A DNA stretch of 30,833 nucleotides, from assembly GCA_016839515.1 (NCBI GenBank), contig JAEOUE010000168.1:1-30833 (forward strand). The letters run 5' to 3'. This document shows, in pieces, positions 656-24,568 of the stretch. A program made the position numbers and the translations under genes. Source of the stretch: Candidatus Hodarchaeum mangrovi (GTDB taxonomy: Archaea > Asgardarchaeota > Heimdallarchaeia > Hodarchaeales > Hodarchaeaceae). Under the pieces are notes generated by a model. It was not told where the DNA came from. It searched no databases and saw only the letters and a list, made by a program, of their open reading frames with translations. Numbering within the stretch: the stretch's first letter is position 1; every line of letters starts with the position of its first letter.

Positions 656-676
656 AATTTTTCACCTAATGTTAGA

Positions 677-732: not shown

Positions 733-751
733 AAAATATTGAATTCTCAAG

Positions 752-3378: not shown

Positions 3379-4059
3379 ATGGTTAAATCCTTCACTGACG
3401 ATTTATTGGTACCATTTGCTAAATACTTAGAGAATTATGGGACATGGGATATTTCTTCACAAGGTGCTAGCATCCTTATTCCTCATTCACATTTCCACTT
3501 CGATAAGATATTGTTTTTACCTAAAAGACTTTATTATTCTGCCGATAAAACGTGGAATTTCATCGCATCTGTTCCGATCATCTCTAAAAATCAATTTAAA
3601 CAGAATGATATAAAATTATATCAAAATCTTAAATGTATTGAAGCAGAAGTGAAAAAATTAGGGGTGTTAAAGAAAAAGTTTCGATTTCAGGAGCATTCGA
3701 TTAGTCTAAAACTTCAGGAAGAAATTCCTTCATTTGAAACAAGGTCGTTTCTAACTGAAATTTTAAATGAAGATAGAGATTTGATGCAACTAATGAATAA
3801 TATTTCTCCAGAGAATTTACAAATACAGTTATATTCCCCGAGGATTCAAACTTCTAGTATTAAAGAATATATAAACCAATTTAAAATCTATTATCAGAAT
3901 CCAGAAGAAATAATTTGGAATATAGCCATAGAAAAATACTTAGATTCTATAATTTCTAAAAAAAAGTACACTTTGGTTCTAGATTCTATCATCCAGGCTC
4001 TTGATCTATGTGCCATCCATGTTATTCGTGGTACAAATATTATCAAGAGTAGAATGTAG
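3379..4059 (+). CDS. Hypothetical soluble protein
   Basis: 226-aa ORF filling the gap between two minus-strand genes; AGTGA RBS-like sequence before the ATG; no recognised motif. Confidence 0.7.
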   Translation: MVKSFTDDLLVPFAKYLENYGTWDISSQGASILIPHSHFHFDKILFLPKRLYYSADKTWNFIASVPIISKNQFKQNDIKLYQNLKCIEAEVKKLGVLKKKFRFQEHSISLKLQEEIPSFETRSFLTEILNEDRDLMQLMNNISPENLQIQLYSPRIQTSSIKEYINQFKIYYQNPEEIIWNIAIEKYLDSIISKKKYTLVLDSIIQALDLCAIHVIRGTNIIKSRM

Positions 4060-4073
4060 AGTCGATATATGAT

Positions 4074-5966: not shown

Positions 5967-5984
5967 TCATAAAACTCCTAAAAT

Positions 5985-8900
5985 CTACTTCAAATGTTTT
6001 CTGAACTGTTCCGCTTTTACCACTTTTTCTTCCTGTGGTAAGCTTCTCCATATTAATAATTGTTTACGAATAGAATCGACAAACCTCCTAACTGAGGATT
6101 CCCAGGCAGAAAGTATTCCTTCTAAACGAACCAGATTTATTTCAAAGGTATAATGATATTTGATTTCATCGAGATATGTAATTAATTCAACAGTTTGTTT
6201 CATGCCCATATCAAAAGGTGCCAGATTTACTGTTGCAGTCAGAGATTTCTTTCGTCCTCCTTCTGATTCAGAAGTATTAATTTTTTGAGCAAAAAATACT
6301 CCTCCAACGCTTTCTGATTCATAAATCAAGAAAAATTCCCGTAAGAATTCTATTATCCCTTCAGCTTCTTGTTCCGTTGCAGCTACAAATGGTAATGAGA
6401 TAGTCCATTTACCTGATTCCTCATCAGGTCTTGTTGATAATTCCCACGCTCTTTTAACCGATGGAACAGACATTTTCGCGGAAATTCGTAGAGGATATAC
6501 CGTACTTAACAAAATTCCAATAATACCAAAACCTAAAGCATTTATAACAGATCCTGACGAATAATTAATTGCTAAAGATTCAGGAAATAGTCCTATTATA
6601 GATAAAACGACTGCTGAAGTAATACCGATCAAATACCCAACTACAGCACCTATCACTGCATATACTAAAAATTCAGCCAAGAATAAACCAGCTATATGAA
6701 AGGGAGCTAGACCTAAAGATGTAAAAATAGAAATTTCTTTTTTAGATTCATAAACTGTAGATATTGAAGTGTTGACCATCAGTAAAATTGCAATGGTTAA
6801 TGGAATAGCTAATTCAACGAATCCCCGACCTAAATCTTGGGTCACACGTCTATGTATACTTACAATTCCATTATTTCCAACACGAATTTCTAAATATCTA
6901 GCATAGGTTGCAGAAATAGTTTCAGCTATTTTAACTGCATTTGTATAGTCACTAAGTACAGATATTGAATATAAAGAAGCTCCAAGGTCTTTTGCTGTAT
7001 CAGCAGAGACAATAACAATTTGATTTCCACTTATATGAACATTTGGGCTTGACGCATGTGTATTACGGGGAGTTATAGATTCACTATCAAATTCTTTTAA
7101 TTCTACAAACCGATCACCATCAATTAATCCTACTACAGTATATTGAGCTCCTGACCATAAAATGGTGTCATTTACATTAATATTTAAAATATCTGCTGCA
7201 GAATTAGGTAGAAGACATTCGGAATTATTATTTCCAGAAAGCCATCTACCTGTAACCAAAAAGTTCTCCACAGGTTGAAAATCTACTTCTAACTCCGACA
7301 AGCCAAGAAGGGCCCACGCCACCCAATATGCACTTAAATCCATTGTTGAAATATTAACATATCCAATAGTAGTCTGAGCAGGTGGATATAACCACCAGTG
7401 GGTAGTAAAATTGCCTATATTGCTATAATCAATTTTTAAATTTTCAAGAAGTTCTTGTGATAATGGTGTTTTCCAATCTTTACTTCTAATATAAACACCA
7501 GTATAAGGTGTTGGAGCTTCAAGGCCTTTTGAATAAACAGAAATTTGAGTGCTAGCAGAAGTAAACAAGGTTAAAGAAAAAGTAATTAGAATAATCCCTG
7601 AAAGTGCAATAATTGTTCTTCCCTTCCTCTTTTTCATCCGTGAAATTCCAGTACTCATTGCTATAAGAATTGTAGAAGTTCTTGAGGTATCCACAAAATG
7701 AGAACCTACAATCTTGACACGTAAACTCTTCAAAAAGTTAAATCCTTCTTGATAGATCATATAAAGCGCGGGAAAAATAAATATAATAGCAACAACACCT
7801 AAGATTATCATTAGAATATTTTTTGAAAGATGTAATCCTGGATGAATTATATAGAAAAAACCTAATGTAATTGAAAATATCGCACCTGTTGATATTATAC
7901 GTTTTACTCCTGTATCAAAGTTAAAAAGCAAAGAAGTCAACGCAAATGAAAAAGGAATTAATAATACAGCAAAAAAGATAGTTGTAGAAGTACCATCTTC
8001 AATAACATTACGAGCTTGTTTAAAAGCATCATAGGATAATGTGTGGAGCTGTTTAATATTAACTAAAGCATGTGAGTAATTATATTGGTTTATTAATTCC
8101 TCTACCTGCGAATAAAGTGTTTTCGCGTTATAGAGAGTCGTATTTACAAGAGCATCATCTATATTATATCTAGTATAAAGATCAACATATGTTTTTGTTA
8201 TTGAGAGTAAATCTTTGGAAGAGATCCAAGCTGATAATCCAAGATTTAGAGTTATTCCTTTTGCAACCTTATATCCACTACCACGTAAAAATTCATCACT
8301 TGAATTAGTGATGTAAACGCCAAGGATTTTATCAGGCAGCTCACCTACTAATATTACTGGGCTATCAGGTTCTAAAAACACTAAGCTTACAGTACCAACT
8401 CCAATATATCCATATGAAAAATACAAACTTCTAGTTTCAGGATCTAAAGCTCTATAGCGTAATGAACCTGCTGAAGGAACCTGTGTATAAGGATGGGTAA
8501 TTCCACCTAAGGTAAGAGTTCCACACTCAAAAATAATTGGATTTATTGTGATTCTACTATTTGTTAATTTTCCTGTATTTTTAAATTGCTTTCCATGTTG
8601 ACCCAAGTTATTTGCTTTAATTAATTGACCAGAATCATCAAAACAATATGCTTCTACAATGAAATCAAGAGGGTAATCAGGTTGGGAAGATGCAACTCCT
8701 CGAATTTGGTAATAACCATTATAATCAGCTTGTGTATAAAAACAAAATTCTTCAGGTACCCCTTTTCGAAGTTCCATATAAGTGACTCTAATAAGTGCGT
8801 TTGGAACATTCTCTAACCAAGCAGTTGTTTCATTATACTCTTTAACATTCCCATGGATAGAAGCAAAACCTACGTGAAATTGATGTTTCAAGCTGAAAGT

Positions 8901-10403
8901 TTTATGCTGAAGATCTAGGTAATTTCCCAAATTTGGTTCTGTTATAAGCTGTGAGAGAGCACATAAAGAATAAACTACTTGTGGTTTAAGATTTGACCAA
9001 TTAAGATTATCAACAATATCAAAAGGAGTACTAAATTTAAATCGATAGGATTCAGATGTAAATATTGATAATCCGATCACATTACTGGCAACAAATGGTT
9101 CTTGATCTCCAACAAATGTTATAGGGGCAATGTCTTCAAATTTTGCCAAATTAATATATGACTTAATATCAAATATTACATCTGTTTCAGATCGTATTTG
9201 AGACGCATATTTTTGAAGAAAACCTTCACCAATATCTTTCATTCGATTCTGTAAATTATTTCCTGAAGTAAATTGTAATTTAAAACGATAAAGATATCCA
9301 TATGGATTTATACCCAATTTTGTGCTTGTACTAGATAGATCTAAACATAAGACTAGTTTTATGCCTGAATTTTTGTTTAAAATATCATAATTTTCAAATA
9401 CAAACTCCCTAGAACCTGCTGCAGATTGATGGTGTCCAGAAAAAGCGATAAACATTATTGTTTTTTTAGGTGTAATGTTATTATCCCTGATTAAATGGAT
9501 AAGTTCAAGGAGAGTAGCTATTCCACACGCATCATCAGCACCGGGTGCAATTGAGTTCACAATAGAATTTGAATCAAAATAAGCGGAGATTATTACTTTA
9601 TCCTCATCTTCACCTGGAAGAATTCCTATTACATTCTTTGCATCTATTGTCTTCCATTCCATTCCAGAATAGATTTTTACAATATGACCCCCTTCTTTAC
9701 CAAGTGATCTAATATTTGAAGCAGTGGTCTGATTTGAGATAAAAATTCTTGGAATATATAGTGGTACATCCAAATCTTTTTCTTTAGCCTCAAAACGATC
9801 GGTATTATTAGGTGTAAGAAAAATAATACCTTTTGCACCAAGACTTACCGCATTTACCCAGTTTGATTTTGAATTGAATTCAAGAATTACAATTGAATCC
9901 TTAACTTCTAAACCGTTGAACTCTGTAAATGAACCATAACCTGCATATACTAAAGATCCAATTAATCCTCCTAGAGGAGTTTTACATGCATGTACTGAAT
10001 TTGGATTTAACATTTGAGCAGAATAATTCTGTCCTCCATATTCAATGTAAGTACCATAATCAATAGGAACAGTCAAGGGATAGGTAAAATATTCAACATT
10101 AGACAGATTATTTCGGTTAAAAAAATTAGTAATATATGTCAGGGACTGCTCATAACCTGGATAACCAGTCATTCGGCTCCCAAAACTCGAAAAATTTGCT
10201 ATATGGCTTTGTATACTAGGAAAATAAGAAGAGTTTATCTGACTTGCAAGTAACTCAAAATCTAAGTATTCATTAACTACTTTTGGAAGATCCACTGAAA
10301 ATTCATTGTTAAAATCAATTGTACTTGTAGATGGATTACTTAAAATTAAAGTCAATAGAAAAAAAAAAAGAGGAAGGAGTAAATGAACTTTTAGAATCTT
10401 CAT
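5985..10403 (-). CDS. Giant FtsX/MacB-type ABC permease with N-terminal PA + M28 peptidase-like (degenerate) ectodomain
   Basis: 1472 aa. Signal peptide; SRMTGYPG; PA-like GSLVYAGYGSFTEFNGLEVKDSIVIL; M28-like IISAYFDS...APGADDACGIATLLEL; TM cluster; KRKGRTIIAL (FtsX TM1); second extracellular domain; VYESKKEISIFTSLGLAPFHIAGLFLAE (FtsX signature region); soluble C-terminal domain. Confidence 0.85.
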   Translation of the reverse strand: MKILKVHLLLPLFFFLLTLILSNPSTSTIDFNNEFSVDLPKVVNEYLDFELLASQINSSYFPSIQSHIANFSSFGSRMTGYPGYEQSLTYITNFFNRNNLSNVEYFTYPLTVPIDYGTYIEYGGQNYSAQMLNPNSVHACKTPLGGLIGSLVYAGYGSFTEFNGLEVKDSIVILEFNSKSNWVNAVSLGAKGIIFLTPNNTDRFEAKEKDLDVPLYIPRIFISNQTTASNIRSLGKEGGHIVKIYSGMEWKTIDAKNVIGILPGEDEDKVIISAYFDSNSIVNSIAPGADDACGIATLLELIHLIRDNNITPKKTIMFIAFSGHHQSAAGSREFVFENYDILNKNSGIKLVLCLDLSSTSTKLGINPYGYLYRFKLQFTSGNNLQNRMKDIGEGFLQKYASQIRSETDVIFDIKSYINLAKFEDIAPITFVGDQEPFVASNVIGLSIFTSESYRFKFSTPFDIVDNLNWSNLKPQVVYSLCALSQLITEPNLGNYLDLQHKTFSLKHQFHVGFASIHGNVKEYNETTAWLENVPNALIRVTYMELRKGVPEEFCFYTQADYNGYYQIRGVASSQPDYPLDFIVEAYCFDDSGQLIKANNLGQHGKQFKNTGKLTNSRITINPIIFECGTLTLGGITHPYTQVPSAGSLRYRALDPETRSLYFSYGYIGVGTVSLVFLEPDSPVILVGELPDKILGVYITNSSDEFLRGSGYKVAKGITLNLGLSAWISSKDLLSITKTYVDLYTRYNIDDALVNTTLYNAKTLYSQVEELINQYNYSHALVNIKQLHTLSYDAFKQARNVIEDGTSTTIFFAVLLIPFSFALTSLLFNFDTGVKRIISTGAIFSITLGFFYIIHPGLHLSKNILMIILGVVAIIFIFPALYMIYQEGFNFLKSLRVKIVGSHFVDTSRTSTILIAMSTGISRMKKRKGRTIIALSGIILITFSLTLFTSASTQISVYSKGLEAPTPYTGVYIRSKDWKTPLSQELLENLKIDYSNIGNFTTHWWLYPPAQTTIGYVNISTMDLSAYWVAWALLGLSELEVDFQPVENFLVTGRWLSGNNNSECLLPNSAADILNINVNDTILWSGAQYTVVGLIDGDRFVELKEFDSESITPRNTHASSPNVHISGNQIVIVSADTAKDLGASLYSISVLSDYTNAVKIAETISATYARYLEIRVGNNGIVSIHRRVTQDLGRGFVELAIPLTIAILLMVNTSISTVYESKKEISIFTSLGLAPFHIAGLFLAEFLVYAVIGAVVGYLIGITSAVVLSIIGLFPESLAINYSSGSVINALGFGIIGILLSTVYPLRISAKMSVPSVKRAWELSTRPDEESGKWTISLPFVAATEQEAEGIIEFLREFFLIYESESVGGVFFAQKINTSESEGGRKKSLTATVNLAPFDMGMKQTVELITYLDEIKYHYTFEINLVRLEGILSAWESSVRRFVDSIRKQLLIWRSLPQEEKVVKAEQFRKHLK

Positions 10404-12726: not shown

Positions 12727-14613
12727 TTAATGAAATTTAATCGTCTTAATTAGCACTTGTTTAGATTTATGTAAGGTAAATGTCGTATTAAATAAAGTTA
12801 TAGCCTGATTTATTTCAATTTTTAACATCGAAAATAAACTACTTACCGAAGAGATACTATTAAAGGGAGTAATAGACCTTAATGGGCTGATATTTAATGA
12901 ATAATTGAAGGGTTTAAAAGAAACCAAAGCTGAACCCTTAGGAGGTAAATTTACAGAGAATGAATCCCCAGGTAGAAATTCATTTATTGTAGAGTTATAT
13001 GGTATTAGACTGTTATTAATATAAAGATTAAACGTGGTTTGCATCTTTTTAGGAATAAATTCGAGATTTTTCTCCTCAAAATATGGATTCCAAATGATAA
13101 AAAGTCGGTCTTCTTGCAAGGGAGGATATTGAGTATCAAAAATATTGAGATTCACCATTAGAGCATTACGATCTGTGGAAACTCCAAGTGCTTCAAACAT
13201 TAAATACAACCAAATTGTTTCTCCTGATCCATAGATTTCTTTTCCATTAAATCCAGCTTTATAACGATATGAATTGTCCTCATGAGGATGAATATAATAT
13301 TCATCAACATCTTCATAAGGAATATATTGCAATGTTTTAGGCCCATATTCTCGTTCATTAGTATCAGGAATATTGGGTGAAAAAAAATCAAACATCTTAA
13401 TACGATTTAAATTCAAAACTTTTAATGGTTCTTCGGCAATAATGTAAGGGGAAAAGTAGAGATATTTTAGATATTCAAGCCAGATCATTATTGATTCAAT
13501 ACACTCCTTATAGGCTGGTGGTTCTATTCCTGCCCTTTCGGCCCAATTGAAAAATGGTGTGTGTAGGCCATCCCGCCAAGGTCTTGCTTGAATCAGATAG
13601 AGCTCACATTTTCCTCCATTTGTATATAAGAGTTGTTCTTGGGCATAGAAAAACTCACTTGCCATTTTTCCAAAGTCTATTGTCGTATTTAATTTATCTG
13701 AATATTTTAATAATCGTGCTGCAGCTGCAGAAGCACATCCTAACTCTTGAGGTTCATATAATAATTCAAAGGGCTTGGTCTTACGCATCGCAATTAAACA
13801 CTTCATTGCTTCTTGAAGAAAAGTTAGTTCTCCGCAAAGCTCATATGCATCAATCAAAGAATATGCTAGAAGGCCAGCTGTACAATAGTTCCAATTCTCT
13901 GAGCCAACCTGTTTTAAATCAAGATCAAAAAATTGAGGGAATAAATAATTGAAATTCGCTGCAGCTTGTAAAGCGCTGCTTAAGCTAGAAAAATATGGAT
14001 TTTTTAAGAGTGAAATATTCGAAATTTTAAATAGATGACCATATTTCCATACAGAGTTCTCCATAAAATACCAGCTATCATGTCGTGTTTCCCCGGGTCG
14101 ATTAATGGATTGATTGACTTCTGGATTAAAATATTTAGGCAATTCGTTAATAAACATGTCAACCATTGTCTGTCTAGTTGAATTTGGATGTAGTTGTAAA
14201 TATCGATAAAGTGGCCACAAAACATCAATCCCAGCCATCAATTCTGTGATGTTTCTATATCCTTCGGGCCACATCCATCCATGTGCATTCTTTACATAAG
14301 CTCTAAATCCTGTAATGTTGTCTTCATTATCCTTCCCATAAGTCCAACAATCATCATACGTTAAAAACGCATCTATGCACTTATTTGCATATTCCTGCCA
14401 AGTAGTAGCATTCTCTGCAAAGGATGTATATGTAGGTAAGGTAGAAATAGCACTCTGTCGATTCTTTATCATATCAGTCCATATTTCTTCCAAACTTTTG
14501 GGAGGAAATAGAATATTTACTAAAATAATTCCTCCTATAACTCCAGATATGATTATTATAGTGACTAACAAGGCTCTAAGATCAGTACTTTTAGACATTA
14601 TAATCATTCTCAT
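12727..14613 (-). CDS. Putative (alpha/alpha)6 glycan-active enzyme of unassigned family, paralogue 1 (N-terminal TM anchor)
   Basis: 628 aa; N-terminal hydrophobic helix; HDSWYFMEN, YEPQE, YIPYED and GKEIYGSGE shared with two other ORFs in the window. The start may be a downstream Met (MSKSTD). The ORF is solid; the function is inference. Confidence 0.7.
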   Translation of the reverse strand: MRMIIMSKSTDLRALLVTIIIISGVIGGIILVNILFPPKSLEEIWTDMIKNRQSAISTLPTYTSFAENATTWQEYANKCIDAFLTYDDCWTYGKDNEDNITGFRAYVKNAHGWMWPEGYRNITELMAGIDVLWPLYRYLQLHPNSTRQTMVDMFINELPKYFNPEVNQSINRPGETRHDSWYFMENSVWKYGHLFKISNISLLKNPYFSSLSSALQAAANFNYLFPQFFDLDLKQVGSENWNYCTAGLLAYSLIDAYELCGELTFLQEAMKCLIAMRKTKPFELLYEPQELGCASAAAARLLKYSDKLNTTIDFGKMASEFFYAQEQLLYTNGGKCELYLIQARPWRDGLHTPFFNWAERAGIEPPAYKECIESIMIWLEYLKYLYFSPYIIAEEPLKVLNLNRIKMFDFFSPNIPDTNEREYGPKTLQYIPYEDVDEYYIHPHEDNSYRYKAGFNGKEIYGSGETIWLYLMFEALGVSTDRNALMVNLNIFDTQYPPLQEDRLFIIWNPYFEEKNLEFIPKKMQTTFNLYINNSLIPYNSTINEFLPGDSFSVNLPPKGSALVSFKPFNYSLNISPLRSITPFNSISSVSSLFSMLKIEINQAITLFNTTFTLHKSKQVLIKTIKFH

Positions 14614-14827
14614 AATAAAATAAATTTATAGTGATAATTGTAAGAAGATTTAATAGTTCTTTATGTTTTTATTATTTTCTAAGATAAATCAAATCCAGAA
14701 TTATTTGAAAGATTAAAATTTCTAAAATCAATAGGAAATATTACAATAGTCACTAATTGGAAAACTTTCAGAGAACCATGAATAATATTAAGAATCAAGT
14801 TAATTATAAATCATAAAAATAAAGATC

Positions 14828-17233
14828 GTGAAATTTGTGAAAAATTTGGAGTTTATCATTTCAAACCAGAAAATTGTTTTTCAGAATAGAAAAAGAGGAG
14901 TAGATACTGATTTTTATGTAAATAATGGAATAAAATGGATTAAATCTCTTTCAGTTCCCTTAATTTCTTTTGAATGGGGTACTTATTCCGCATTAGAATT
15001 AGAAAAAGTTAAAGCATCAGATTATTCTTTTAAAGTTCTTTTATCAAGAAAATTTGAGGAAGATATTGAAATCAATGCCATAGTTGAATCTCATCCTGAT
15101 ATTAGTCCATGGATCCATTTCAAAATCGAAATAAAACCTTTAAAAATGTTAACATTTCAAAAAAAAGCACCAGAAATTTTATTAAAATTACCTAATTCCA
15201 GTTCTATAACTCAATCTATTGTAATCAATCAACCCACGAGGCATACACCACCAACAAATCAATGGAAATCAAACGATTTCCCAGCTAGTTATCATTGGGA
15301 TGCAAATAAGAAAATTGAAACATTATTTTTTGTAGATTTTTCACAGATGAAATGGATGTCCCCTGAAACATTTGAACGATTTTCTCTATACGAATGTGGT
15401 CTCCACTCTGATGGAAAATTTGGATTATTAAATAGAGTACAATTATCTACTCAGGTTGATATTCCAAGGAATGTTACGCTTTTATTTGACTTCTATATTA
15501 CACAGAACTATTTAGAGAAGCAAGTTGATAAATGGATTGCAGTAGAATCCTTAATTTCTCAATCTTTTAAACTAATCCCTGGAGCAGTTAATTTTCCCAT
15601 TTCAAAGTTGTCATGGTCGAAATTCAGCAAAGGTTGTATTAAGGACTTAATGAAAGAAAATTATTGTTGGTTTGACCCAGAAAACCCTAAATATCACGCT
15701 TATGTTTTTGATGAATCAGAAATCGAACGTAGAAAGGCTTGGGAATCTAAATTTGTTGCAGAGACAATGACAATGCTAGATATCCTTCCTCCTTGGATTT
15801 TATATCTTAAATTGCATTATGATGAAACAGAAACCAGCCATGTTAAAAATACTTGTAAAAGTATCTTACAATTTTCTGATCCTAAATCTAAATTTCTATA
15901 TAATAGCCTTAAAAAGACAACTACGAACGAATACGAAATTAATAGACCAACTAATATATCTATAGGTGATTCATGGTATTTTTTTGAGCCAATAGCACGA
16001 TTCGGGATTTTATTAAAGCTTCTTCCCTCATTTTTACAAAATACTGAATTAAAACCCTATTCGGATATTTTTAGAGTAATGTGTGAAAAATCACAGATAT
16101 TTGTCAATAATCATAAATACAGAATTTCAGCATTTTATAACCCAATTTCTTTACAACCATTTTCAGATAATTCTAAAGAAGTATTAGCTAAATTAGTTGA
16201 TTTACGAGGTAAAAAAGATATTAACTGGAAAGTTGTTGCTAAAAATTATGCTTGTTTATGTATTTTTATTTTTATTCAAGTAGAAGCTTATTATATTTTC
16301 AATGAAAAAAGATATCTGGAAGAGGCAGAAAAAGGAGCAAAAGAATTAGCTAGAATATCACCAGACGAATTATTTTGGGAACCTCTTGAAATTGCTTATG
16401 GAGTTGCAGGCTTAAGCGAACTTTATCAGATCAATCATGATCTATTCTTCTTGGATCTTGCTAAAAAATTAATATTAAATGAGTTAAGAATGTTCTATTG
16501 GTATAATGATAATTCATTTAATTGGGAGGGAAAAAGAAACAATTTAGGTTTAATAATGGCCTGCGTAGGAATTAGATATCCAGCAATGAAAGAAAATATT
16601 GAATCAATTTATCCATGGCTGTCTTTTTTGAAAATAGCAATTCAGAATAACCGATTTGACTTTATTCCTCTCGGTATTTTCAAATTTTTTAACTTAATCA
16701 GGATAAATAGCTTTTATTATTTTTCTGAGGTTTTATCAGATGATTTAATCTATCCCTCACGAATCGATACACCTTGTCCATATATTCCATTTGAAGATCT
16801 AGAAATGCTTGAAACTCCTAGTCACTGCTCTAAAACTCAACCTGAAGTACCAAAGGGAAGACGAACTGGAACATTAGGACGAGAAATATATGGAGCTGGA
16901 GAAATACTCTGGTTATATTTGATGTTCGAAGCGCTTGCTACTGTGGACAATTCAGATATCATGATTATGAACATTGATCTATTTAACTTCAAATATATTC
17001 ATGATTTTCCACCAAAAAAACCTACATTCATACTATTTAATCCATATGAAAAGGAAATTGAAACAATTATTACATTCCCCTATCTCCAGAAGGAGGAACA
17101 ATTAAAGACTACTATTAATGTTTTCTCAATAGAAAAAAACACAAGACTACCCTTATCTTCCAAATTAGAAATGTGGGGGAACAAGATAAGAATAAATTTG
17201 AAAGAGGAAGATGTTATTATTCTAAATTTTTAA
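14828..17233 (+). CDS. Putative (alpha/alpha)6 glycan-active enzyme of unassigned family, paralogue 2 (cytoplasmic, extra N-terminal beta-rich domain)
   Basis: 801 aa, no signal peptide; GDSWYFFEP, WEPLE, PAMKENIES, YIPFED, GREIYGAGE and WLYLMFEAL. Alternative start TTG at 14846 has a GTGA RBS. Confidence 0.7.
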   Translation: MKFVKNLEFIISNQKIVFQNRKRGVDTDFYVNNGIKWIKSLSVPLISFEWGTYSALELEKVKASDYSFKVLLSRKFEEDIEINAIVESHPDISPWIHFKIEIKPLKMLTFQKKAPEILLKLPNSSSITQSIVINQPTRHTPPTNQWKSNDFPASYHWDANKKIETLFFVDFSQMKWMSPETFERFSLYECGLHSDGKFGLLNRVQLSTQVDIPRNVTLLFDFYITQNYLEKQVDKWIAVESLISQSFKLIPGAVNFPISKLSWSKFSKGCIKDLMKENYCWFDPENPKYHAYVFDESEIERRKAWESKFVAETMTMLDILPPWILYLKLHYDETETSHVKNTCKSILQFSDPKSKFLYNSLKKTTTNEYEINRPTNISIGDSWYFFEPIARFGILLKLLPSFLQNTELKPYSDIFRVMCEKSQIFVNNHKYRISAFYNPISLQPFSDNSKEVLAKLVDLRGKKDINWKVVAKNYACLCIFIFIQVEAYYIFNEKRYLEEAEKGAKELARISPDELFWEPLEIAYGVAGLSELYQINHDLFFLDLAKKLILNELRMFYWYNDNSFNWEGKRNNLGLIMACVGIRYPAMKENIESIYPWLSFLKIAIQNNRFDFIPLGIFKFFNLIRINSFYYFSEVLSDDLIYPSRIDTPCPYIPFEDLEMLETPSHCSKTQPEVPKGRRTGTLGREIYGAGEILWLYLMFEALATVDNSDIMIMNIDLFNFKYIHDFPPKKPTFILFNPYEKEIETIITFPYLQKEEQLKTTINVFSIEKNTRLPLSSKLEMWGNKIRINLKEEDVIILNF

Positions 17234-17245
17234 ATTCTGGTTAAT

Positions 17246-17428
17246 TCAGCCCTTTATCCGTGAAAGCGACTGGCCAAAAATTGCGATTCCTATAATGCCT
17301 ATGAACAAGACAATCTCTATTATAAATAGAAGCAATTCACCTATCACTGGTTTTAATTCTTGACTTAATATAGCTAAAATAACAGCTAAAATAACTAAAA
17401 TAAATGCGATTATGTCTCCTAATTCCAT
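17246..17428 (-). CDS. Small membrane protein (two TM helices)
   Basis: 60 aa with two hydrophobic segments separated by SQELKP; GAGG RBS 8 nt upstream; lies in intergenic space, co-oriented downstream of the ABC ATPases. Confidence 0.6.
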   Translation of the reverse strand: MELGDIIAFILVILAVILAILSQELKPVIGELLLFIIEIVLFIGIIGIAIFGQSLSRIKG

Positions 17429-17500
17429 TTTTATTGCCTCTTACAATATAAATTGTTATCTTTTCTAATTTTTTCCTTTATTTAAAATTCTTTTGTAGAA

Positions 17501-18244
17501 TCATTGAGGAATCCTTACATCTTCTGGGCCAATAAACACATCAACTCTATTCTGGGTTCGTATAATTTCTCCATCTCTCAACCAAGAAATTCGATCAGCT
17601 AAATCAAGAAGTTTAAGGTCATGAGTACTATTTATTACGGTTACTCCCGTTTCGTGGCATAGCTCTCGTAATAATTCCACAATCTGAAAGCCTGTTTTTA
17701 GATCTAAATTTCCCGTTGGCTCATCAGCTAAAATAACGCTTGGTTTTCCGGCCAATGCTCTAGCAATGGCAACACGCTGTTGTTGTCCTCCACTGAGTTC
17801 ATCAGGAGTGTGATGGATACGATCTCCAAGACCAACTCGTTCTAAAATTTCTATAGCACGCTTTCGACGCTCTTCTCTTGGAAATCTTTGAAAAACTAAA
17901 GGTAGTGATACATTTTCTAAGGCAGATATGACAGGAATAAGGTTAAATGTTTGAAAAACAAATCCTATCTTATAGGAACGTAGAGAGGCTAATTGTTTTT
18001 TGGTTAAATCAGAGAGGTTCACTCCTTCAAAATAGATTTCCCCTTTCGTTGGAATATCTAAAGCTCCCACCATATTTAAAAATGTAGTTTTCCCCGAACC
18101 AGATGGACCCATAATACAATGAAATTCACCCTTATAGATGTCTAGATTAATGCCTTGAAGTGCATTGATCTTATTATCACCCATAATATAAGTTTTCCAT
18201 ACATCTTCTATCCGAATTGTGACTTTTTGAGACATCTTTATCAC
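17501..18244 (-). CDS. ABC transporter ATP-binding protein, MacB/LolD family
   Basis: Walker [10 protein letters not shown]-loop FVFQTFNL, signature [15 protein letters not shown], Walker [13 protein letters not shown]-loop STHD. Likely true start is ATG 18235 (MSQKV). Confidence 0.95.
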
Positions 18245-18247
18245 TTT

Positions 18248-18970
18248 TTATCCAATCGAACTAACTTGAACATCAGCTCTATCTTCAATTCTATCAACGT
18301 ATCCGTCCCTGATCCAGATAATGCGATCACTAATTGAAATCATTTTCAAATCATGGGTTGCTGTAATAATTGTAGTCCCCCTTTCATTGTTTAACTTCCT
18401 TAGTAGTTCAATTATTTCAAGTCCAGTTGCTAAATCAAGGTTTGCAGTTGGTTCATCTGCAAGTACAATGGCAGGATCATTAGCTAATGCCCGAGCAATT
18501 GCAACACGCTGTTGTTGACCACCACTTAACTGACCAGGTTTGTTCTTCATACGATCTCCAAGCCCTACTGTCATTAATAGTTCTTTTGATCGCTTTCTTC
18601 TTTCCTCTCGTGGAATCCCAGCAAAAATCATCGGTGTTTCAATATTTTCTTGCGCTGTGAATGCTAATAAAAGATTGAATGTCTGAAAAATATAGCCAAT
18701 CTTTCGATTACGTAACCATGCCAATTCGTATGCATCAAGTTCTGCTATATCGACCTGATCAATGAAAATTTGTCCTGAATCAACTATATCAAGACCCCCT
18801 ATGGCATTGAATAACGTACTCTTACCTGACCCTGATGGCCCCATAATAGAAATGTATTCTTCTCTTTTAATCTTGAATGAAATTCCTTGAAGTGCATGGA
18901 CTTCTACTTTACCAAGGTAATAAGTTTTATATACATCGGAGATTTCAACAACGTTTTCAGTTAAACTCAT
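18248..18970 (-). CDS. ABC transporter ATP-binding protein, MacB/LolD family
   Basis: [50 protein letters not shown]; GAGGAG RBS. Confidence 0.95.
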   Translation of the reverse strand: MSLTENVVEISDVYKTYYLGKVEVHALQGISFKIKREEYISIMGPSGSGKSTLFNAIGGLDIVDSGQIFIDQVDIAELDAYELAWLRNRKIGYIFQTFNLLLAFTAQENIETPMIFAGIPREERRKRSKELLMTVGLGDRMKNKPGQLSGGQQQRVAIARALANDPAIVLADEPTANLDLATGLEIIELLRKLNNERGTTIITATHDLKMISISDRIIWIRDGYVDRIEDRADVQVSSIG

Positions 18971-18984
18971 GGTTGACTCCTCTA

Positions 18985-19587
18985 TTAATTTTCATAACGT
19001 AAAGCTTCCGCTGGGGATAGACTTGCTGCACGACGAGCAGGAACATAAGTAGCTAAGGCAGAAAGTATCATTGAAACTAGGACTGAAGTTACTAATAGAA
19101 TTAAAAAGAAAAAGATATTATCTTGTATAAAGAGACTGATTTCGTTAAAAGAAAAACGATTAAGATTAATTATAACCCCAAAAAGCATTCCAATAAAACC
19201 TCCAAGACTTCCTCCTAAAATACCAAGAAGAAGTGCTTCAATAATAAATAACCGGACAATATGGTTGTCCAACCCACCTATACATTTGTAAACTCCTATC
19301 TCTTTAACTCGTTCATTTACAGCCATCAACATACTATTTGTGATTCCACCAAAGCAAACGACTAATGAAATTCCTACTAGCCAGAATTGATAAGCTTCAA
19401 TCCCTGTTTCAGCTTGCAATTCCCTTAATATAAAGTAACTAGTTAATAAAGCGACCATAAATGCTATTCCTAGTATTATACCCAGTGCTGTGATAACTGA
19501 TCGAAAAAATCTTCTTCTTATATTTGAAACAGATAAAAATAACATTTCCCCAATGGTAAAATTAGGTTCTGGAAGATCTAAACTCAA
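18985..19587 (-). CDS. Minimal FtsX-like ABC permease (4 TM, no ectodomain)
   Basis: RRRFFRSVITALGIILGIAF; ITNSMLMAVNERVKEIGVYKCIG; PARRAASLSPAEALRYE C-terminus. The TTG start overlaps the upstream TGA stop (TTGA); GGAGG RBS. Confidence 0.9.
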   Translation of the reverse strand: MSLDLPEPNFTIGEMLFLSVSNIRRRFFRSVITALGIILGIAFMVALLTSYFILRELQAETGIEAYQFWLVGISLVVCFGGITNSMLMAVNERVKEIGVYKCIGGLDNHIVRLFIIEALLLGILGGSLGGFIGMLFGVIINLNRFSFNEISLFIQDNIFFFLILLVTSVLVSMILSALATYVPARRAASLSPAEALRYEN

Positions 19588-19955
19588 TATTCGCCCTCCA
19601 TTTTTTTACTCAATAGACCTTTCTTTATTTTTTTCCATGTTACATTTTTTTCAGTGATGTCAACCAAATGTTGTCTTAGGATTTTTACTGTTTCACCTTC
19701 ATTTATTCGCGTGCTATTCCAAGTAACGTAAGGAGCGTAAAAACGTCCTCGTTCAAATTTGATTTGATCATTTTCAAAACTAAACTTTAAAAACCCTAAT
19801 TCTCTTAGATAGCAGTATTCATTTGGACAAAGAATATCAATCTCCCCCATATCTTTTTTGAGATAGAGCAAAAGGTAATCTGTATAATCTTTGATTATTT
19901 GTCCACATGGACACTGTATTTGGTTTGTTTTATCCTCTAAGGCCAAACTATACAC
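19584..19955 (-). CDS. Small hypothetical protein with CxC...CxxxxC (putative Zn-binding)
   Basis: 123 aa; IQCPCGQ and ILCPNEYC; first gene of the ABC operon with a 4-nt overlap into the permease. Probable start is TTG 19946 behind an AGGTG RBS. Confidence 0.75.
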   Translation of the reverse strand: MYSLALEDKTNQIQCPCGQIIKDYTDYLLLYLKKDMGEIDILCPNEYCYLRELGFLKFSFENDQIKFERGRFYAPYVTWNSTRINEGETVKILRQHLVDITEKNVTWKKIKKGLLSKKMEGEY

Positions 19956-20173
19956 CTTTAAATATTAAAATAAACTTATTTCTTAAAGAGAAATTGATCT
20001 TAAATTTTGTTAAGCACTCTTTTAATAAATTATGTCATAAAAGTTGTGTACAAAATTCTTGAAAATAAATGACTATATAAATTTAGATCTAATATCAAAC
20101 TTGCAAGCCTTCTTTTGTGTATATTCTGCTAAATATCATGAAATAATTTACCTTATTTTCAAAAAGAATGCCT

Positions 20174-22042
20174 TTACTTCTTCGGTCTTAGCTCTAGGAA
20201 AAGAACCATACCTAGTGCGATCACAGATACTCCAACAAAAAGAATTATGATAATTTCATCATTTCGTGGACTGGGAATAGAAGTTGTTGTAGGTTCTGTA
20301 GTAGTAGTAGTATCTTGTAATTCATATGGTTCCATTGTAATTTTTGCAGTCCCAAGAGCTGGTAATGTTATATTGAAGGTATCATCCATTAAAAAATTTC
20401 CCAAAAGATTTGAGCCATTGTAATATAAAGAATAAGAAGCTGGATAGTTTTTAATTCTAAATGTTAATGTTTTTTGCTGATTATATGGATTGAAGACGAT
20501 ATAATATCGATTTGTGGAGTTTATTGGATAATTACGCTCTAAAACGTTTAAATTAAGAATCATGGCATTTTGGTCCAAGGATTCTCCCAATGCTTCAAAC
20601 AATAAATACAACCAAAGTGTCTCCCCAGCACCGTAAATTTCTTTACCGTTATAACCAGCCTTTAGTGGATCAGGATCGTAAGTCCCTCTTGATTGATAAT
20701 AACTTATATCCTCATATGGAATATATTGAGCAGTAATTGGACCATAAAATCGTTCATACACATCTGGGACACAAGGACTAAAGAAATAAAAGTGCTTAAT
20801 TCGATTTAAATTCATAATTTTCAATGGTTCTATGACTTTAAATGTAGGTGAATCATAAAGATGTTTAATATAATCTACCCAAAATAGGATTGTCTCAATA
20901 TTTTCCTTAGCTGCAGGAGCATCAATACCACCTAAACCTAGTTCTTTAGGATTTGCATAAGGGGAATGCATACCATCTTGCCAATTTGTTGGTAACCAAG
21001 GACAATCTTGAGGATTAAATCCGAAATTCCAATCTATTTTTCCATTATCATAATATAAGATTTCTGTCCCAGCATAAAATAATTCAGTAGCTAATTGTTG
21101 AAAGTTTGTTGTTGAATTTATTAAATCTGCGTATTGAATCAATCTAGCAGCTGCAGCAACCCCAGCTGACACTTCTTGTGGTTCATACATTAGGTTAAAT
21201 GGAGGAGTTACAGATCTCATTGCTAATAATGATTTTTCCGCTTCCTCTAAATAAGTAAAATTTCCAGTCATTTCATAAGCGTCAATTAAGCTATAAGCCA
21301 TTAGACCAACGGTACAATAATTTATATTACCATTTTCTATTGCCTGTTTTGTTTCAACAATGACAAATTGAGGAAATAAATAGTTAAAATTGGAAGCCAT
21401 TTCAAGAGCACTGTTTAATGACCCATAATAAGGCTCAACAAGGACAGATTCATTAGAAATATAAAGTAAATGTCCCCATTTCAGTACACTATTTTCCATA
21501 AAATACCAACTATCATGCGTTGTTTCCCCTGGTCCATTTGTAGCTTGTTTATATACAGGAGAATAATAGAGTGGTAAACTTTGAATAAATTCATCCAATT
21601 CATCAGATCGTGTTGAATTAGGATGTAATTCTAAATACCTATAGAGAGGCCAAATCACATCCATAGTAGCTATTAATTCCGTACTATCACGAGTCCAGTC
21701 TGAACCTCCCCAACCATCTGCACCTTTTACATAAGGGCGAAAACTTCTCCGATTCCCTCCTATATCCAACCAACTAACATCATATGTCAAGAGTTCTTCA
21801 ATACTTTTCTCTGAGAAATCAGTCCAAGTTGTTGCATTCTCTGGAAATTCAGCATAAGCTGGGAGAGTGGAGATAGCAGACTTACGAGTATCAAAGAGAC
21901 TTTCCCAAGTAAAATCAACATTATGAATGATATTATTTTCTGTATTAGTTGAAATGATAACTGTAGAAGCAATGGTTAATGCGTGAGTAATAAGCAAGAG
22001 AAATGCAATTTTTAATATTTTATAAGACCCTATTCTTGACAT
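20174..22042 (-). CDS. Putative (alpha/alpha)6 glycan-active enzyme of unassigned family, paralogue 3 (signal peptide, Thr-rich linker, C-terminal TM anchor)
   Basis: 622 aa; signal peptide; HDSWYFMEN, YEPQE, PAAKENIET, YIPYED, GKEIYGAGE; QDTTTTTEPTTTS linker, then hydrophobic helix and RPKK; GAGGA RBS. Confidence 0.7.
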   Translation of the reverse strand: MSRIGSYKILKIAFLLLITHALTIASTVIISTNTENNIIHNVDFTWESLFDTRKSAISTLPAYAEFPENATTWTDFSEKSIEELLTYDVSWLDIGGNRRSFRPYVKGADGWGGSDWTRDSTELIATMDVIWPLYRYLELHPNSTRSDELDEFIQSLPLYYSPVYKQATNGPGETTHDSWYFMENSVLKWGHLLYISNESVLVEPYYGSLNSALEMASNFNYLFPQFVIVETKQAIENGNINYCTVGLMAYSLIDAYEMTGNFTYLEEAEKSLLAMRSVTPPFNLMYEPQEVSAGVAAAARLIQYADLINSTTNFQQLATELFYAGTEILYYDNGKIDWNFGFNPQDCPWLPTNWQDGMHSPYANPKELGLGGIDAPAAKENIETILFWVDYIKHLYDSPTFKVIEPLKIMNLNRIKHFYFFSPCVPDVYERFYGPITAQYIPYEDISYYQSRGTYDPDPLKAGYNGKEIYGAGETLWLYLLFEALGESLDQNAMILNLNVLERNYPINSTNRYYIVFNPYNQQKTLTFRIKNYPASYSLYYNGSNLLGNFLMDDTFNITLPALGTAKITMEPYELQDTTTTTEPTTTSIPSPRNDEIIIILFVGVSVIALGMVLFLELRPKK

Positions 22043-22126: not shown

Positions 22127-23497
22127 TTAAAATTTAAATTGAGGTAATTCAGCTTTAAAAGCTTCTATATAAGCATTTGATAAGATTTCGGCTAATTCAA
22201 GATCACGAACCATTGGATCTAAAGCAAATGCTTGTGTTATAAGATCAATATCTCCTTTTATAGATCCCTGCGTTATTAATTTCGCAATAGATATTTCTTG
22301 ATTACAAATTGCTGCAATTGATTCTGGTAGAGAACCAATTTTTACTCCAGAAGCACCATATCTGTTTAAAAGACAAGGAACTTCCACTATTGCATCAGAA
22401 GGTAGATTTGTTATACATCCATTATTTTCAATATTTAAAGCAGGTTCATAGACATTTGTATTTGTTTCTATTGAATCTATGATTGTTGCAATTCTTTCAG
22501 CGACATCAGAATGTAAGTGACTAAGTGGAAGTTTATAATCGATCATATCCTGAATTTTTTTCATGTTTTTTATTTTATTTTCTTTATTTTCTTGAAAATT
22601 GAAAGGATAAAGATTAAATTTATCCCAATTCTCTTTTCTACTTGTATACGGTAAATACTCTGATATATGAGTTTCACCACCGACAGGTAGTTTCTTAAAG
22701 GTTTTTAGCATTCGTATTGTCAATGCTTCAAATTTTTTAGGTACTTGATCTAGATTCGCCCAGATTAGAGGGTAAATATCCTCATTTGTACCTTTTCTTC
22801 TGATATCGAGCATCCATGAGAAATGATTCAATCCAGCTGCTAATACTTCATATTCATTGAGTGAAGCATTTCGAATTTCCTGATATTCTGAAAGTTTATT
22901 ATTTCTTATCCTTTTTTGTAGGTCAGGAAGCATAATCCGGCCCAATATATAATGACCATGCCAAAATTGATGACAAAAACTAATACATTTCAGATTCGTG
23001 AGTTCATTTATAGCATAATGGATTCTAGGAAGTGGGTTGGTAAAATTTATTATCCAACTATCTGAAGCTAAATCTTGAATGTCATTAAAAACAGGTATTA
23101 GAACAGCAATGTTTCTAGCTGTGTGACCAAATGATCCAGGTCCTCCATTCTCAGCATAATGATAAATATCGAATTTTTTTCCTAGTTCGTAATCCTGACT
23201 CCAAGTATCGTCCCGATTAACCCCAATGATCAAAATAATATAATCCGCATCATGTAAAACCTCGCATCTATCAGTTGTCGACACGAGTTCCATTTTTGAC
23301 CCAAACTCATTTTTTATACGCTTAGCAAGCGAATAAACCATTTTAAGCTTATTTTCATCGATATCTACCATACAAAGGGTTCCATTGTCAAAATTCTTAT
23401 TTTTTAAGATGTCACCTAAAGTAACAAGATTAAACCCTGCGCTCCCTGCTCCAAGTGTAACAATTTTTGGATCATCTGACATAATTAAACCACTCAA
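22127..23497 (-). CDS. Glycoside hydrolase family 4 (NAD+/Mn2+-dependent), alpha-galactosidase-like
   Basis: KIVTLGAGS (NAD-binding), AENGGPGS, INFTNP, FCH, GLNHF, HISEY, NxGxIxNLPxDAIVEVP, AFALDPMV. Likely start is ATG 23482 (MSDDPK). Confidence 0.9.
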   Translation of the reverse strand: MSGLIMSDDPKIVTLGAGSAGFNLVTLGDILKNKNFDNGTLCMVDIDENKLKMVYSLAKRIKNEFGSKMELVSTTDRCEVLHDADYIILIIGVNRDDTWSQDYELGKKFDIYHYAENGGPGSFGHTARNIAVLIPVFNDIQDLASDSWIINFTNPLPRIHYAINELTNLKCISFCHQFWHGHYILGRIMLPDLQKRIRNNKLSEYQEIRNASLNEYEVLAAGLNHFSWMLDIRRKGTNEDIYPLIWANLDQVPKKFEALTIRMLKTFKKLPVGGETHISEYLPYTSRKENWDKFNLYPFNFQENKENKIKNMKKIQDMIDYKLPLSHLHSDVAERIATIIDSIETNTNVYEPALNIENNGCITNLPSDAIVEVPCLLNRYGASGVKIGSLPESIAAICNQEISIAKLITQGSIKGDIDLITQAFALDPMVRDLELAEILSNAYIEAFKAELPQFKF

Positions 23498-23521: not shown

Positions 23522-24568
23522 TTAATACTTAACAATCGTTTTTATATCATTAGAAGAACCTGCTTTCATCAAAGAAAACATATTTTTTAACTCATCTAAG
23601 GTATATTGCTTCGTTATTAAAGAGTTTATGTCAATCACATTTTTCTGAAGAATATCCATTGCATTCTGGTTTTCATAGGGATTAGTGAAACTACCAAAAA
23701 TGTGTAATTCGTTTTCATATACCTTAAAAATATCTAATGGAATCTCAGTACTAGGATTTGCAACTCCAAAGAGTAATGCTTGACCCCCGCGATTTAAAAT
23801 TTTGATTGACCCTATCGAAGTTTGTGCGCTTCCAACAGCTTCAACTGACAAATCTACTCCATTATTAGCAGTTTGTTTGGAAATAAAATCAATCATTGAA
23901 AATTCCATTGGATTAACAACTTGATCAGCTCCAAACTTTATTGCAAGCTCTCTTCGTAATTCTATTGGTTCAAAAACAAAAAGCTCAGACTTGAAAAGAT
24001 ATTTTATCAGTGAAATCATCATCAATCCAATTGGACCTGCACCAATAACAGCTGCAGTCTCGACAATGGAATTTTTCAGATTATTTAATCCATGAAGACA
24101 ACACGCAATAGGTTCCATGAAAAGTGCTTCTTTTAACGTGACTTTTGAAGGAATTTTAATAGCTGCACTTGCAGGACTTTTGATTAATTCTGCAAATCCT
24201 CCAGGTTCTGTTACTCCTAATGCTTTCCAGTTTAAACAAAAATGAGGACGCTTTTTCTTGCAATAATAACAATATTGAGAAGGTTTGATATTATAATTAA
24301 GGCAAGAAAGATTTGGATTAAGCGCTACACGATCTCCTACAAGATAATTTTTTACTTCTGAACCGATTTGGATAATTTTTCCTGAAAGCTCATGGCCTGG
24401 AACAAGAGGGTATTTTACAAATGGAACTTGTCCCTCATAGATATGTAAATCAGTCCCACATACTCCACAATAGGCAACTTCAACTAAAATTTCGTTATTA
24501 TTAATAGAAGGGTTCTGAATTTCTTCTAATTCAATTTTAAAGGGCTTTTCAAAGATTAAAGCTTTCAT
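23522..24568 (-). CDS. Zn-dependent medium-chain dehydrogenase (sugar/polyol dehydrogenase-like)
   Basis: CGVCGTD, GHE, structural-Zn Cys cluster, EPIACC, GAGPIG Rossmann motif; AGGTA RBS. Confidence 0.92.
   Translation of the reverse strand: MKALIFEKPFKIELEEIQNPSINNNEILVEVAYCGVCGTDLHIYEGQVPFVKYPLVPGHELSGKIIQIGSEVKNYLVGDRVALNPNLSCLNYNIKPSQYCYYCKKKRPHFCLNWKALGVTEPGGFAELIKSPASAAIKIPSKVTLKEALFMEPIACCLHGLNNLKNSIVETAAVIGAGPIGLMMISLIKYLFKSELFVFEPIELRRELAIKFGADQVVNPMEFSMIDFISKQTANNGVDLSVEAVGSAQTSIGSIKILNRGGQALLFGVANPSTEIPLDIFKVYENELHIFGSFTNPYENQNAMDILQKNVIDINSLITKQYTLDELKNMFSLMKAGSSNDIKTIVKY

Follow-up and report, generated by a model that had tools for sequence, protein, structure and literature searches.

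Three homologous genes in an Asgard archaeal locus

We analysed a stretch of 30,833 nucleotides from Candidatus Hodarchaeum mangrovi (Asgardarchaeota; assembly GCA_016839515.1, contig JAEOUE010000168.1, positions 1 to 30,833), hereafter the window, whose G+C content is around 32%. It carries three open reading frames (ORFs), named here P0001, P0002 and P0003, whose shared family we call family X and discuss as a candidate new glycoside hydrolase (GH) family inside the known six-hairpin (alpha/alpha)6 fold class, set apart by comparison with Pfam, NCBIfam and the PDB. P0001 (12727..14613, minus strand, 628 residues) and P0003 (20174..22042, minus strand, 622 residues) are of a short secreted type, whereas P0002 (14828..17233, plus strand, GTG start, 801 residues) is of a long type without signal or transmembrane segment.

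In pairwise BLASTP, P0001 and P0003 are 49% identical over 566 residues (E 0.0), P0001 and P0002 share 25% identity (E 2.6e-35) and P0002 and P0003 27% (E 8.9e-40). These likenesses are far above chance and the three proteins are true homologues. Eight multi-residue motifs, searched as regular expressions (E-x5-D[VI][LI], DSWYFxE, [YW]EPxE, PAxKExIE, NLxRI, YIP[YF]ED, G[KR]EIYG[AS]GE and WLYL[ML]FEAL), occur each once and in identical order in all three. The two-letter motif NY was left outside this search; an invariant N-Y pair (N242 and Y243 in P0001) appears in the three-way alignment. The stretch YEMTGNFTYLEEAEK is located at residue 256 of P0003. The original prediction, made by a model from the sequence alone, had proposed three paralogues with shared ordered motifs. 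Its ORF coordinates are exact, and the motif order and the BLASTP E-values (of the order of 1e-35 or better) bear it out.

A tree built from 106 family members assigns P0001 and P0003 to separate subclades within a single clade of around 620-residue proteins (57 rows, support 100) and P0002 to another clade, of around 800-residue proteins. Hence, two of the paralogues in the window are closer to each other, and the third is an ancient one. The arrangement with three paralogues is conserved in at least one further case, since a hodarchaeotal locus in another genome (L001; L-numbers denote loci carrying family X elsewhere), 72% identical to P0003, likewise carries three genes of family X.

A widespread family without a name

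The original prediction could not place the motifs in a named CAZy family, and Pfam, NCBIfam and PDB sequence profiles give no family either. We use "unassigned" for the lack of a family in these libraries (Pfam models to 2025, NCBIfam of June 2026, PDB sequences of 2026, PDB folds to April 2026). Pfam gave sub-threshold noise for P0001-P0003 at E <= 1, NCBIfam gave no match, and profile searches of the PDB with alignments of 3 and 39 sequences gave chance-level matches, e.g. unc-119 (E 0.55) and 3cc1 on the beta-sandwich (E 0.082). In the ESM Atlas the best scores were 0.84-0.86, below the 0.9 of a lead; they point to unnamed clusters and to one automatically named GH88, with a GH127 cluster at 0.75, and serve as leads only. 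In the open-access literature searched we found neither family X nor an endo-beta-1,2-mannanase described, and the 1,2-mannanases named in titles and abstracts of the literature found are alpha-1,2 enzymes (GH99).

A word-indexed search returned 66 relatives of P0003. The named ones come from Asgard archaea of the Hodarchaeales/Heimdallarchaeota type and from a few Anaerolineae and Firmicutes; all are called "hypothetical protein", and precomputed Pfam domains are lacking throughout. A hidden Markov model (HMM) search of 1.84 billion representatives found 436 family X clusters (at 50% identity) at E <= 0.001, 292 at E <= 1e-10 and 69 at E <= 1e-30, in Asgard archaea, Acidobacteriota, Chloroflexota and others. 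Ten representatives bear the source names "hypothetical protein", "Uncharacterized protein" or "discoidin domain-containing protein", and such names extend to the cultured Paenibacillus baekrokdamisoli and Bythopirellula polymerisocia.

Family X might be a CAZy family that already has a number, either recent or still lacking both a Pfam model and a solved structure. GH families with the (alpha/alpha)6 fold are often newly described, and Pfam and PDB trail CAZy. We consider this unlikely, given the lack of matches in Pfam, NCBIfam and PDB sequences, the remoteness of the PDB folds, the uninformative source names even for the two cultured bacteria and the lack of a description in the literature found.

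Some Anaerolineae proteins (P0031, P0057 and those of L009 and L011) are 49-55% identical to the Asgard ectoenzymes and nested in the clade of around 620-residue proteins. This suggests gene transfer between domains of life.

Cell location and modularity

P0001 has one N-terminal hydrophobic segment, a predicted transmembrane or signal anchor (14497-14589, minus strand), no C-terminal anchor and 12 N-x-S/T sequons. P0003 has hydrophobic segments at both ends (residues 7-32, at 21947-22024, and 593-620, with the C-terminal transmembrane anchor at 20192-20260, all on the minus strand) and eight sequons. P0002 has no hydrophobic segment and three sequons. The window would therefore encode two surface-anchored ectoenzymes, P0001 and P0003, and one cytoplasmic enzyme, P0002, as far as location can be predicted from sequence.

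The full-length bacterial long forms carry an RRxF/L twin-arginine motif within their first 80 residues in 48 of 53 cases, which implies a predicted export to the periplasm. We scanned 42 long representatives, hand-picked from the best 150 of the 436 clusters with E <= 0.001, for domains. None has a Pfam match on the catalytic region, and 17 have Pfam domains outside it: F5/8 type C (CBM32, a carbohydrate-binding module), CBM96, Laminin_G_3, HpiC1-like, NPCBM_assoc, type IX secretion system (T9SS) sorting domains, SLH, Big_2 and fn3. Such predicted accessory modules are of the kind typical of secreted carbohydrate-active enzymes (CAZymes).

Conserved residues

We aligned 217 family sequences to the family HMM and give positions in P0003 numbering. 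The highest conservation concerns E380, the Glu of PAxKE (Glu in 174/174), E444, the Glu of YIPYED (171/175), Y470, the Tyr of EIYG (171/173), G466 (166/168) and N518 (150/152). They are followed by W179 (170/180), E267 (173/189), R414 (159/176), E383 (153/174), E287 (149/190, with Asp in 20 more) and E122 (132/159, with Asp in 16 more). No His position and no Cys position is at least 70% conserved in this set, and P0003 holds only three Cys. Invariant carboxylates had been claimed among the motifs of the three paralogues, with the Asp of DSWY and the Glu of EIYG put forward as mutation targets. The claim stands for E380 and E444, which are near-invariant. It does not extend to the two targets, D177 (132/181) and E468 (122/173), which are conserved only in closer relatives, and E380, E444 and Y470 are better choices.

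The codon of Glu380, the candidate catalytic acid/base, lies at 20903..20905 on the minus strand; its equivalents are E370 in P0001 (13504-13506) and E589 in P0002 (16592-16594). That of Glu444, the candidate catalytic base/acid, lies at 20711..20713 on the minus strand, with equivalents E434 in P0001 (13312-13314) and E656 in P0002 (16793-16795). Tyr470, a near-invariant active-site candidate within GKEIYG, is encoded at 20633..20635 on the minus strand and corresponds to Y461 in P0001 (13231-13233) and Y688 in P0002 (16889-16891).

Family X genes lie beside GH130 genes in many genomes

Scanning a single genome for each species, we obtained 136 confirmed matches to family X and kept 79 loci, in which purpose-built HMMs were run against every stop-to-stop ORF to call neighbours. 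In 63 of the 79, family X has a same-strand GH130 gene no more than 180 nt away, downstream of it in 62 and upstream in L076. Two further loci have a GH130 gene 6-7 kb away and 14 have none; of these 14, six are contigs shorter than 7 kb and four belong to the closest Asgard kin of the window (L001, L002, L006 and L007). The adjacent GH130 spans 11 named phyla in both domains, plus four loci without phylum label. It is found in 45/53 loci of Acidobacteriota, 3/5 of Chloroflexota, 5/10 of the Asgard groups, 2/2 of Verrucomicrobiota, 1/2 of Dormiibacterota, 4/4 unlabelled loci and one locus each of Methylomirabilota, Saccharimonadota and Armatimonadota.

The subtype of these partners points to beta-1,2-mannosides. 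The Asgard partner in L008, which is cytoplasmic, is closest to the 1,2-beta-oligomannan phosphorylase 9fj8 (E 3.7e-76) and the beta-1,2-mannobiose phosphorylase 7fip (E 1e-75); it resembles beta-1,4-type enzymes far less, with matches at 1e-35 or worse. The acidobacterial partner in L014 has a hydrophobic N-terminus and matches beta-1,2 phosphorylases of the 9fj8/7fip type (6e-55) and secreted beta-1,2-mannosidases of the BT3780 type (1e-48). Aligned to 5a7v (whose chain index is offset by +4, as checked at all three residues), it keeps the Lys of beta-1,2 specificity and the equivalent of Glu268 and has Asp at the position of Glu227, residues whose roles in BT3780, including that of the linkage-specifying Lys, are described in PMC4599007. 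The same paper describes GH130 hydrolases as secreted and GH130 phosphorylases as cytoplasmic, a split that matches our two settings.

Other genes recur in the acidobacterial neighbourhoods. A gene for a TonB-dependent receptor was found in 56 loci by BLAST clustering of called genes, and it lies directly upstream of family X in all ten acidobacterial-type loci inspected. A major facilitator superfamily sugar transporter and a flavin adenine dinucleotide (FAD) oxidase, in 13 loci each, are less frequent, as is a ROK kinase (10 loci). Two genes without Pfam match lie upstream of the receptor-X-GH130 operon of the acidobacterial loci, one of 866 residues (34 loci; L014:2555-5155, plus strand) and one of around 441 residues (42 loci; L014:971-2461, minus strand). 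We ruled out the 866-residue protein as a distant member of family X (hhalign probability 0.1). It has weak Atlas leads to GH116, GH94 and GH63 (0.83-0.86) and may be another unassigned glycosidase. In the Asgard locus L003, family X is flanked by a GH20 gene and a beta-1,2-type GH130 gene; another GH130, which belongs to the Uhgb_MP/beta-1,4 type (E 2.8e-160), and a GH2 beta-mannosidase are encoded 2.3-7 kb upstream of X. The stretch L003:4182-9884 combines this beta-1,4-type GH130, the GH2, which has mannosidase immunoglobulin-like (Ig) domains, and, directly upstream of X, the GH20 hexosaminidase, a set that is reminiscent, by analogy, of N-glycan core breakdown.

Fold and relation to known systems

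AlphaFold2 models are confident for both P0003 (39-sequence alignment; pLDDT 90, pTM 0.84) and P0002 (43-sequence alignment; pLDDT 92, pTM 0.94). The P0003 model has a transmembrane helix (residues 2-32), a barrel (around 46-482; 20597-21907), a beta-sandwich (486-572; 20327-20587), a disordered Thr-rich linker (20264-20320) and a second transmembrane helix (595-617), all encoded on the minus strand. That of P0002, on the plus strand, has an N-terminal beta-sandwich (around 6-228; 14843-15511), a barrel (235-700; 15530-16927) and a C-terminal beta-sandwich (712-800; 16961-17227). The barrel regions comprise 12-13 helices.

Foldseek against the PDB gave a probability of 1.00 for GH127, GH76, the N-acylglucosamine 2-epimerase (AGE) superfamily, GH146, GH63 and GH94, at identities of 6-13%. 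Among the 43 matches listed for P0003, 34 belong to six-hairpin CAZymes or to enzymes that epimerise or isomerise sugars (GH127, GH76, GH146 and AGE/YihS/cellobiose 2-epimerase); the other nine are eight chains of complement C5, a protein with a thioester domain of (alpha/alpha)6 type, and a tail protein of SSV19. P0002 matches the SSV19 tail protein, GH127, GH94, PL27 (5no8), GH63, GH116, GH78, GH65, GH15 and GH95. Its multi-domain matches have TM-scores of 0.15-0.39, whereas two matches that cover the barrel only, to the GH76 enzyme 6u4z and the mannose isomerase 5x32, have target-normalised scores of 0.50-0.57. The models thus place the fold of P0002 and P0003 in the class of a six-hairpin (alpha/alpha)6 barrel with a C-terminal beta-sandwich, with no solved family close. 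The six-hairpin barrel of the original prediction is borne out by these confident models and their neighbours, and the Pfam and AlphaFold/Foldseek searches that it had proposed gave no Pfam match and remote folds that include GH76 and GH127.

The SSV19 tail protein (7xdi_F), from an archaeal spindle-shaped virus, is the top fold match of P0002 (E 1.5e-6, TM-score by target 0.43). A six-hairpin domain may occur here in the tail of a virus.

In the P0003 model, every second helix has a conserved motif at its N-terminus or shortly ahead of it: E122/D128 (helix 123-139), D177-S-W (178-196), N241/G246 (244-259), E287-P-Q (288-304), P376-A-x-K-E380 (378-386) and G466-K-E-I-Y470 (469-482), with E444 in the long loop that precedes the last of them. 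The P0002 model has the same pattern. Judging from this helix topology, the six inner helices would open onto one pocket, where we infer that the acids are placed.

The closest structural match of P0003 by E-value is GH127, which with GH146 (HypBA1, Ara127N, BT_1003, BT0349-type; DUF1680) resembles P0003 in length and in having the barrel followed by a beta-sandwich. The GH127 structures 4qjy, 3wkx and 5mqo match P0003 at E around 3e-7, the best obtained, with TM-scores of 0.3-0.36. TM-scores are 0.29-0.36 for GH127 and 0.31-0.37 for GH146 overall, and identities are 10-13% (9% for 6ex6). The corresponding PF07944 does not match P0001-P0003 at E <= 1. In GH127 the nucleophile is a Cys, which a Zn/Cys site holds in place; family X does not share these features, having no conserved Cys.

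The GH76 endo-alpha-1,6-mannanases (BT2949, 4v1s), which are mannan-active and secreted, give the best barrel superposition with P0003 (TM-score by target 0.65, root-mean-square deviation 5.8 A). GH76 enzymes have no C-terminal beta-sandwich and their catalytic pair is two adjacent Asp, whereas family X has such a sandwich and its invariant acids are two Glu 64 residues apart. Identity is 9-10%. The models of GH76 (PF03663), GH88/GH105 (PF07470) and GH125 (PF06824) match neither P0001-P0003 at E <= 1 nor the catalytic region of the 42 relatives. Bacteroides loci with GH76 also hold GH130 beta-1,2-mannosidases, according to PMC4599007.

The AGE superfamily (N-acylglucosamine 2-epimerase, cellobiose 2-epimerase, mannose isomerase, YihS) shares the barrel at TM-scores by target of 0.48-0.57, and its members 3gt5, 5x32, 2zbl and 3vw5, at 0.54-0.57, are among the best barrel superpositions. 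AGE enzymes use His residues in their mechanism. Some work with GH130 phosphorylases, and known epimerase and GH130 phosphorylase pairs are mentioned in the abstract of PMC12871903. Family X could be a sugar epimerase or isomerase, like cellobiose or mannobiose 2-epimerase, preparing the substrate of GH130. We hold this to be the least probable of the alternatives: family X has no conserved His, many members are surface-anchored, exported by twin-arginine translocation (TAT) or fused to CBMs and T9SS tails, there are extra beta-sandwich domains, and the GH130 partner is of the beta-1,2 and not of the mannosyl-glucose type. P0001-P0003 match PF07221 in none of the Pfam, NCBIfam and PDB sequence-profile searches.

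GH94 cellobiose phosphorylase, GH63 YgjK, GH116, GH78, GH65, GH15 glucodextranase and PL27 share with P0002 and the bacterial long forms the order of N-terminal beta-sandwich, (alpha/alpha)6 barrel and C-terminal beta-sandwich. Against P0002 they score 0.15-0.39 (TM-score by query or target) at 6-10% identity, without sequence-profile match. Since the GH94 and GH65 phosphorylases have this layout, one might think of family X as a phosphorylase or transglycosylase, or else as a non-catalytic, SusD-like glycan-binding or accessory protein of TonB uptake: non-enzymatic (alpha/alpha)6 domains exist, as the complement C5 chains illustrate, and family X directly follows the receptor gene in the acidobacterial loci inspected, the receptor being present in 56 loci. 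The modelled position of the invariant carboxylates at the N-termini of inner helices argues against both. The bacterial forms carry a TAT signal, and no lipoprotein Cys was seen in the ten acidobacterial-type N-termini inspected. Most family X members are exported, whereas phosphorylases are cytoplasmic according to PMC4599007. We thus find a binding protein or a phosphorylase hard to credit.

Discussion

Proposed function

We think it very probable that family X is a family of catalytic CAZymes with the (alpha/alpha)6 fold. The evidence tips, without much to spare, towards hydrolases rather than lyases, epimerases or phosphorylases; of the three activities named in the original prediction (hydrolase, lyase or epimerase), the first is thus favoured and the last weakened by the missing conserved His and the many secreted members. 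On balance, we read family X as unnamed, widespread glycoside hydrolases acting on mannose-containing glycans, a reading we hold with modest confidence. The adjacent partner in most genomes is a beta-1,2-type GH130, hence our guess that family X cleaves a glycan containing beta-1,2-mannosides. That the substrate contains such linkages is a reasonable suspicion, on which we would not rely. An endo-action on beta-1,2-mannan or on glycans capped with beta-1,2-mannosides, supplying GH130, would be a more tentative guess still, as it rests by analogy on the GH130 subtype in other genomes. The most specific version, in which family X is the missing beta-1,2-mannan depolymerase, i.e. a new GH family of (alpha/alpha)6 endo-beta-1,2-mannanases feeding GH130 phosphorylases and hydrolases, is doubtful; in this version the enzyme would act on the surface of Asgard cells and in the periplasm of soil Acidobacteriota. 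Endo-beta-1,2-glucanases of GH144 and GH162 pair with a GH94 1,2-beta-oligoglucan phosphorylase. This is a functional analogy only, in that a secreted (alpha/alpha)6 endo-enzyme feeds beta-1,2-oligosaccharides to a cytoplasmic phosphorylase. GH144 and GH162 are not among the fold matches listed, and the case of family X would involve mannose and GH130.

In such a hydrolase, Glu380 and Glu444 would form the acid/base pair, helped by Tyr470, in a pocket that the six inner helices form with their N-termini. Most six-hairpin (alpha/alpha)6 GH families are inverting, and the mechanism would probably be so here. P0001 and P0003, as putative membrane-anchored and N-glycosylated ectoenzymes, would fragment a mannose-containing glycan outside the cell, the oligosaccharides would be imported, and P0002 would process them in the cytoplasm. 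Two further enzymes of the window might complete the breakdown there. One is a GH2 beta-mannosidase (26217..28676, plus strand, 819 residues), recognised by Pfam GH2 domains and by PDB sequence matches to 5n6u (E 5e-115) and 2vjx (E 4e-82); it has no signal-like N-terminus by eye and is likely the downstream exo-enzyme of the locus. The other is an NAD-dependent GH4 glycosidase (22127..23497, minus strand; Pfam GH4 and GH4C), directly downstream of P0003 in window coordinates and on the same strand, which matches the NCBIfam alpha-galactosidase subfamily below its cut-off and has an alpha-galacturonidase-like PDB match. In other genomes, family X would hand beta-1,2-manno-oligosaccharides to the adjacent GH130.

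Several observations weigh against this interpretation. The window itself holds no GH130 gene, and its closest Asgard kin with enough flanking sequence (L001, L002, L006 and L007) have none beside family X. The beta-1,2 assignment is therefore transferred from more distant orthologues. Acidobacteriota account for 45 of the 63 GH130-positive loci and many of these are related, so that 63 overstates the number of independent events; despite this kinship, the linkage of family X and GH130 spans both domains. The mechanism cannot be fixed from the structural matches, which are only distant: their best E-values are 3e-7 and 1.5e-6, and their TM-scores 0.2-0.4 by query and at best 0.65 by target. 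Finally, the invariant Tyr and the conserved Arg414 and Asn518 would also be compatible with a lyase, and some neighbours would fit a uronate-containing substrate: DUF4861, the alpha-galacturonidase-like GH4, a Zn-dependent alcohol dehydrogenase and a gene of the mannitol dehydrogenase family in L069.

These last points lead to the alternative of a polysaccharide lyase in which Tyr470 would serve as base and acid, Arg414 and Asn518 would neutralise the uronate, as such residues do in toroid lyases, and the glycan would contain both uronic acid and mannose. The three residues are highly conserved, PL27 (5no8) is among the fold matches of P0002, and dehydrogenases of the mannitol/mannonate type occur along with the above neighbours. 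Yet, conservation is dominated by two invariant Glu and includes no His, and family X is constantly paired with a GH130 mannosidase or phosphorylase and not with a GH88/GH105 or KduI-type gene. We regard a lyase as quite unlikely.

If family X does consist of glycoside hydrolases, its several hundred sequence clusters would make up a new GH family, shared by two groups of ecological importance, the Asgard archaea of sediments and the Acidobacteriota of soils. The GH130 gene of beta-1,2-mannoside type that almost always lies beside it provides a functional handle. According to PMC4264767, the first description of the Thermoanaerobacter beta-1,2-mannoside phosphorylases, the source of their substrate is not known, and the gene cluster includes two "hypothetical proteins". 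A secreted partner enzyme could fill this gap in substrate supply. Fungal or protist beta-1,2-mannans, or a still-unknown glycan class, might then be a common carbon source. Asgard archaea would also be seen to carry predicted surface-anchored glycan-degrading enzymes.

Other genes of the window

Next to the GH4 gene lies one for a Zn-dependent alcohol or polyol dehydrogenase (23522..24568, minus strand; Pfam ADH_N and ADH_zinc_N), followed by a 310-residue protein without Pfam match (24645-25577, plus strand) and a PqqD-like protein of 149 residues (25636-26085, minus strand). Three antisense ORFs of 127-151 residues inside longer, well-supported genes (12067-12522 and 13554-13952 on the plus strand, 30448-30831 on the minus strand) are most likely not genes. 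Directly beside P0001 is a 715-residue polytopic membrane protein with DUF6785 and DUF6784 (10416-12563, minus strand), which may be a transporter.

Between P0002 and P0003, Pfam identifies a pair of ATP-binding cassette (ABC) ATPases (17501-18244 and 18248-18970, minus strand) and a small FtsX-type permease (18985-19587, minus strand), whose gene start is overlapped by 4 bases by the end of a gene for a 123-residue Cys-pair protein (19584-19955, minus strand). In L001, two genes of around 248 residues (2854-3600 and 3613-4344) fall in one BLAST cluster with these ATPases.

The left part of the window holds a partial DUF4861 protein (2-655, minus strand; Pfam), a 749-residue anchored protein (985-3234, minus strand) with a weakly DUF4861-like N-terminus (BLASTP E 9e-6), a 226-residue protein without Pfam match (3379-4059, plus strand), an OPT-like transporter (4074-5966, minus strand; Pfam) and a 1472-residue fusion of an M28 peptidase with FtsX (5985-10403, minus strand; Pfam). 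This block (2..10403) lies beside family X in the same order in L002, L003, L006, L007, L008 and L010. Its first three proteins accompany family X in 7-8 Asgard loci, and the M28-FtsX fusion also recurs beside it in Asgard loci (FtsX matches in L002, L008 and L010). In the window, this fusion is 7 kb from the two ABC ATPases and the small FtsX protein. Together with the OPT-like transporter, these genes hint at the handling of glycopeptides or peptides at the locus.

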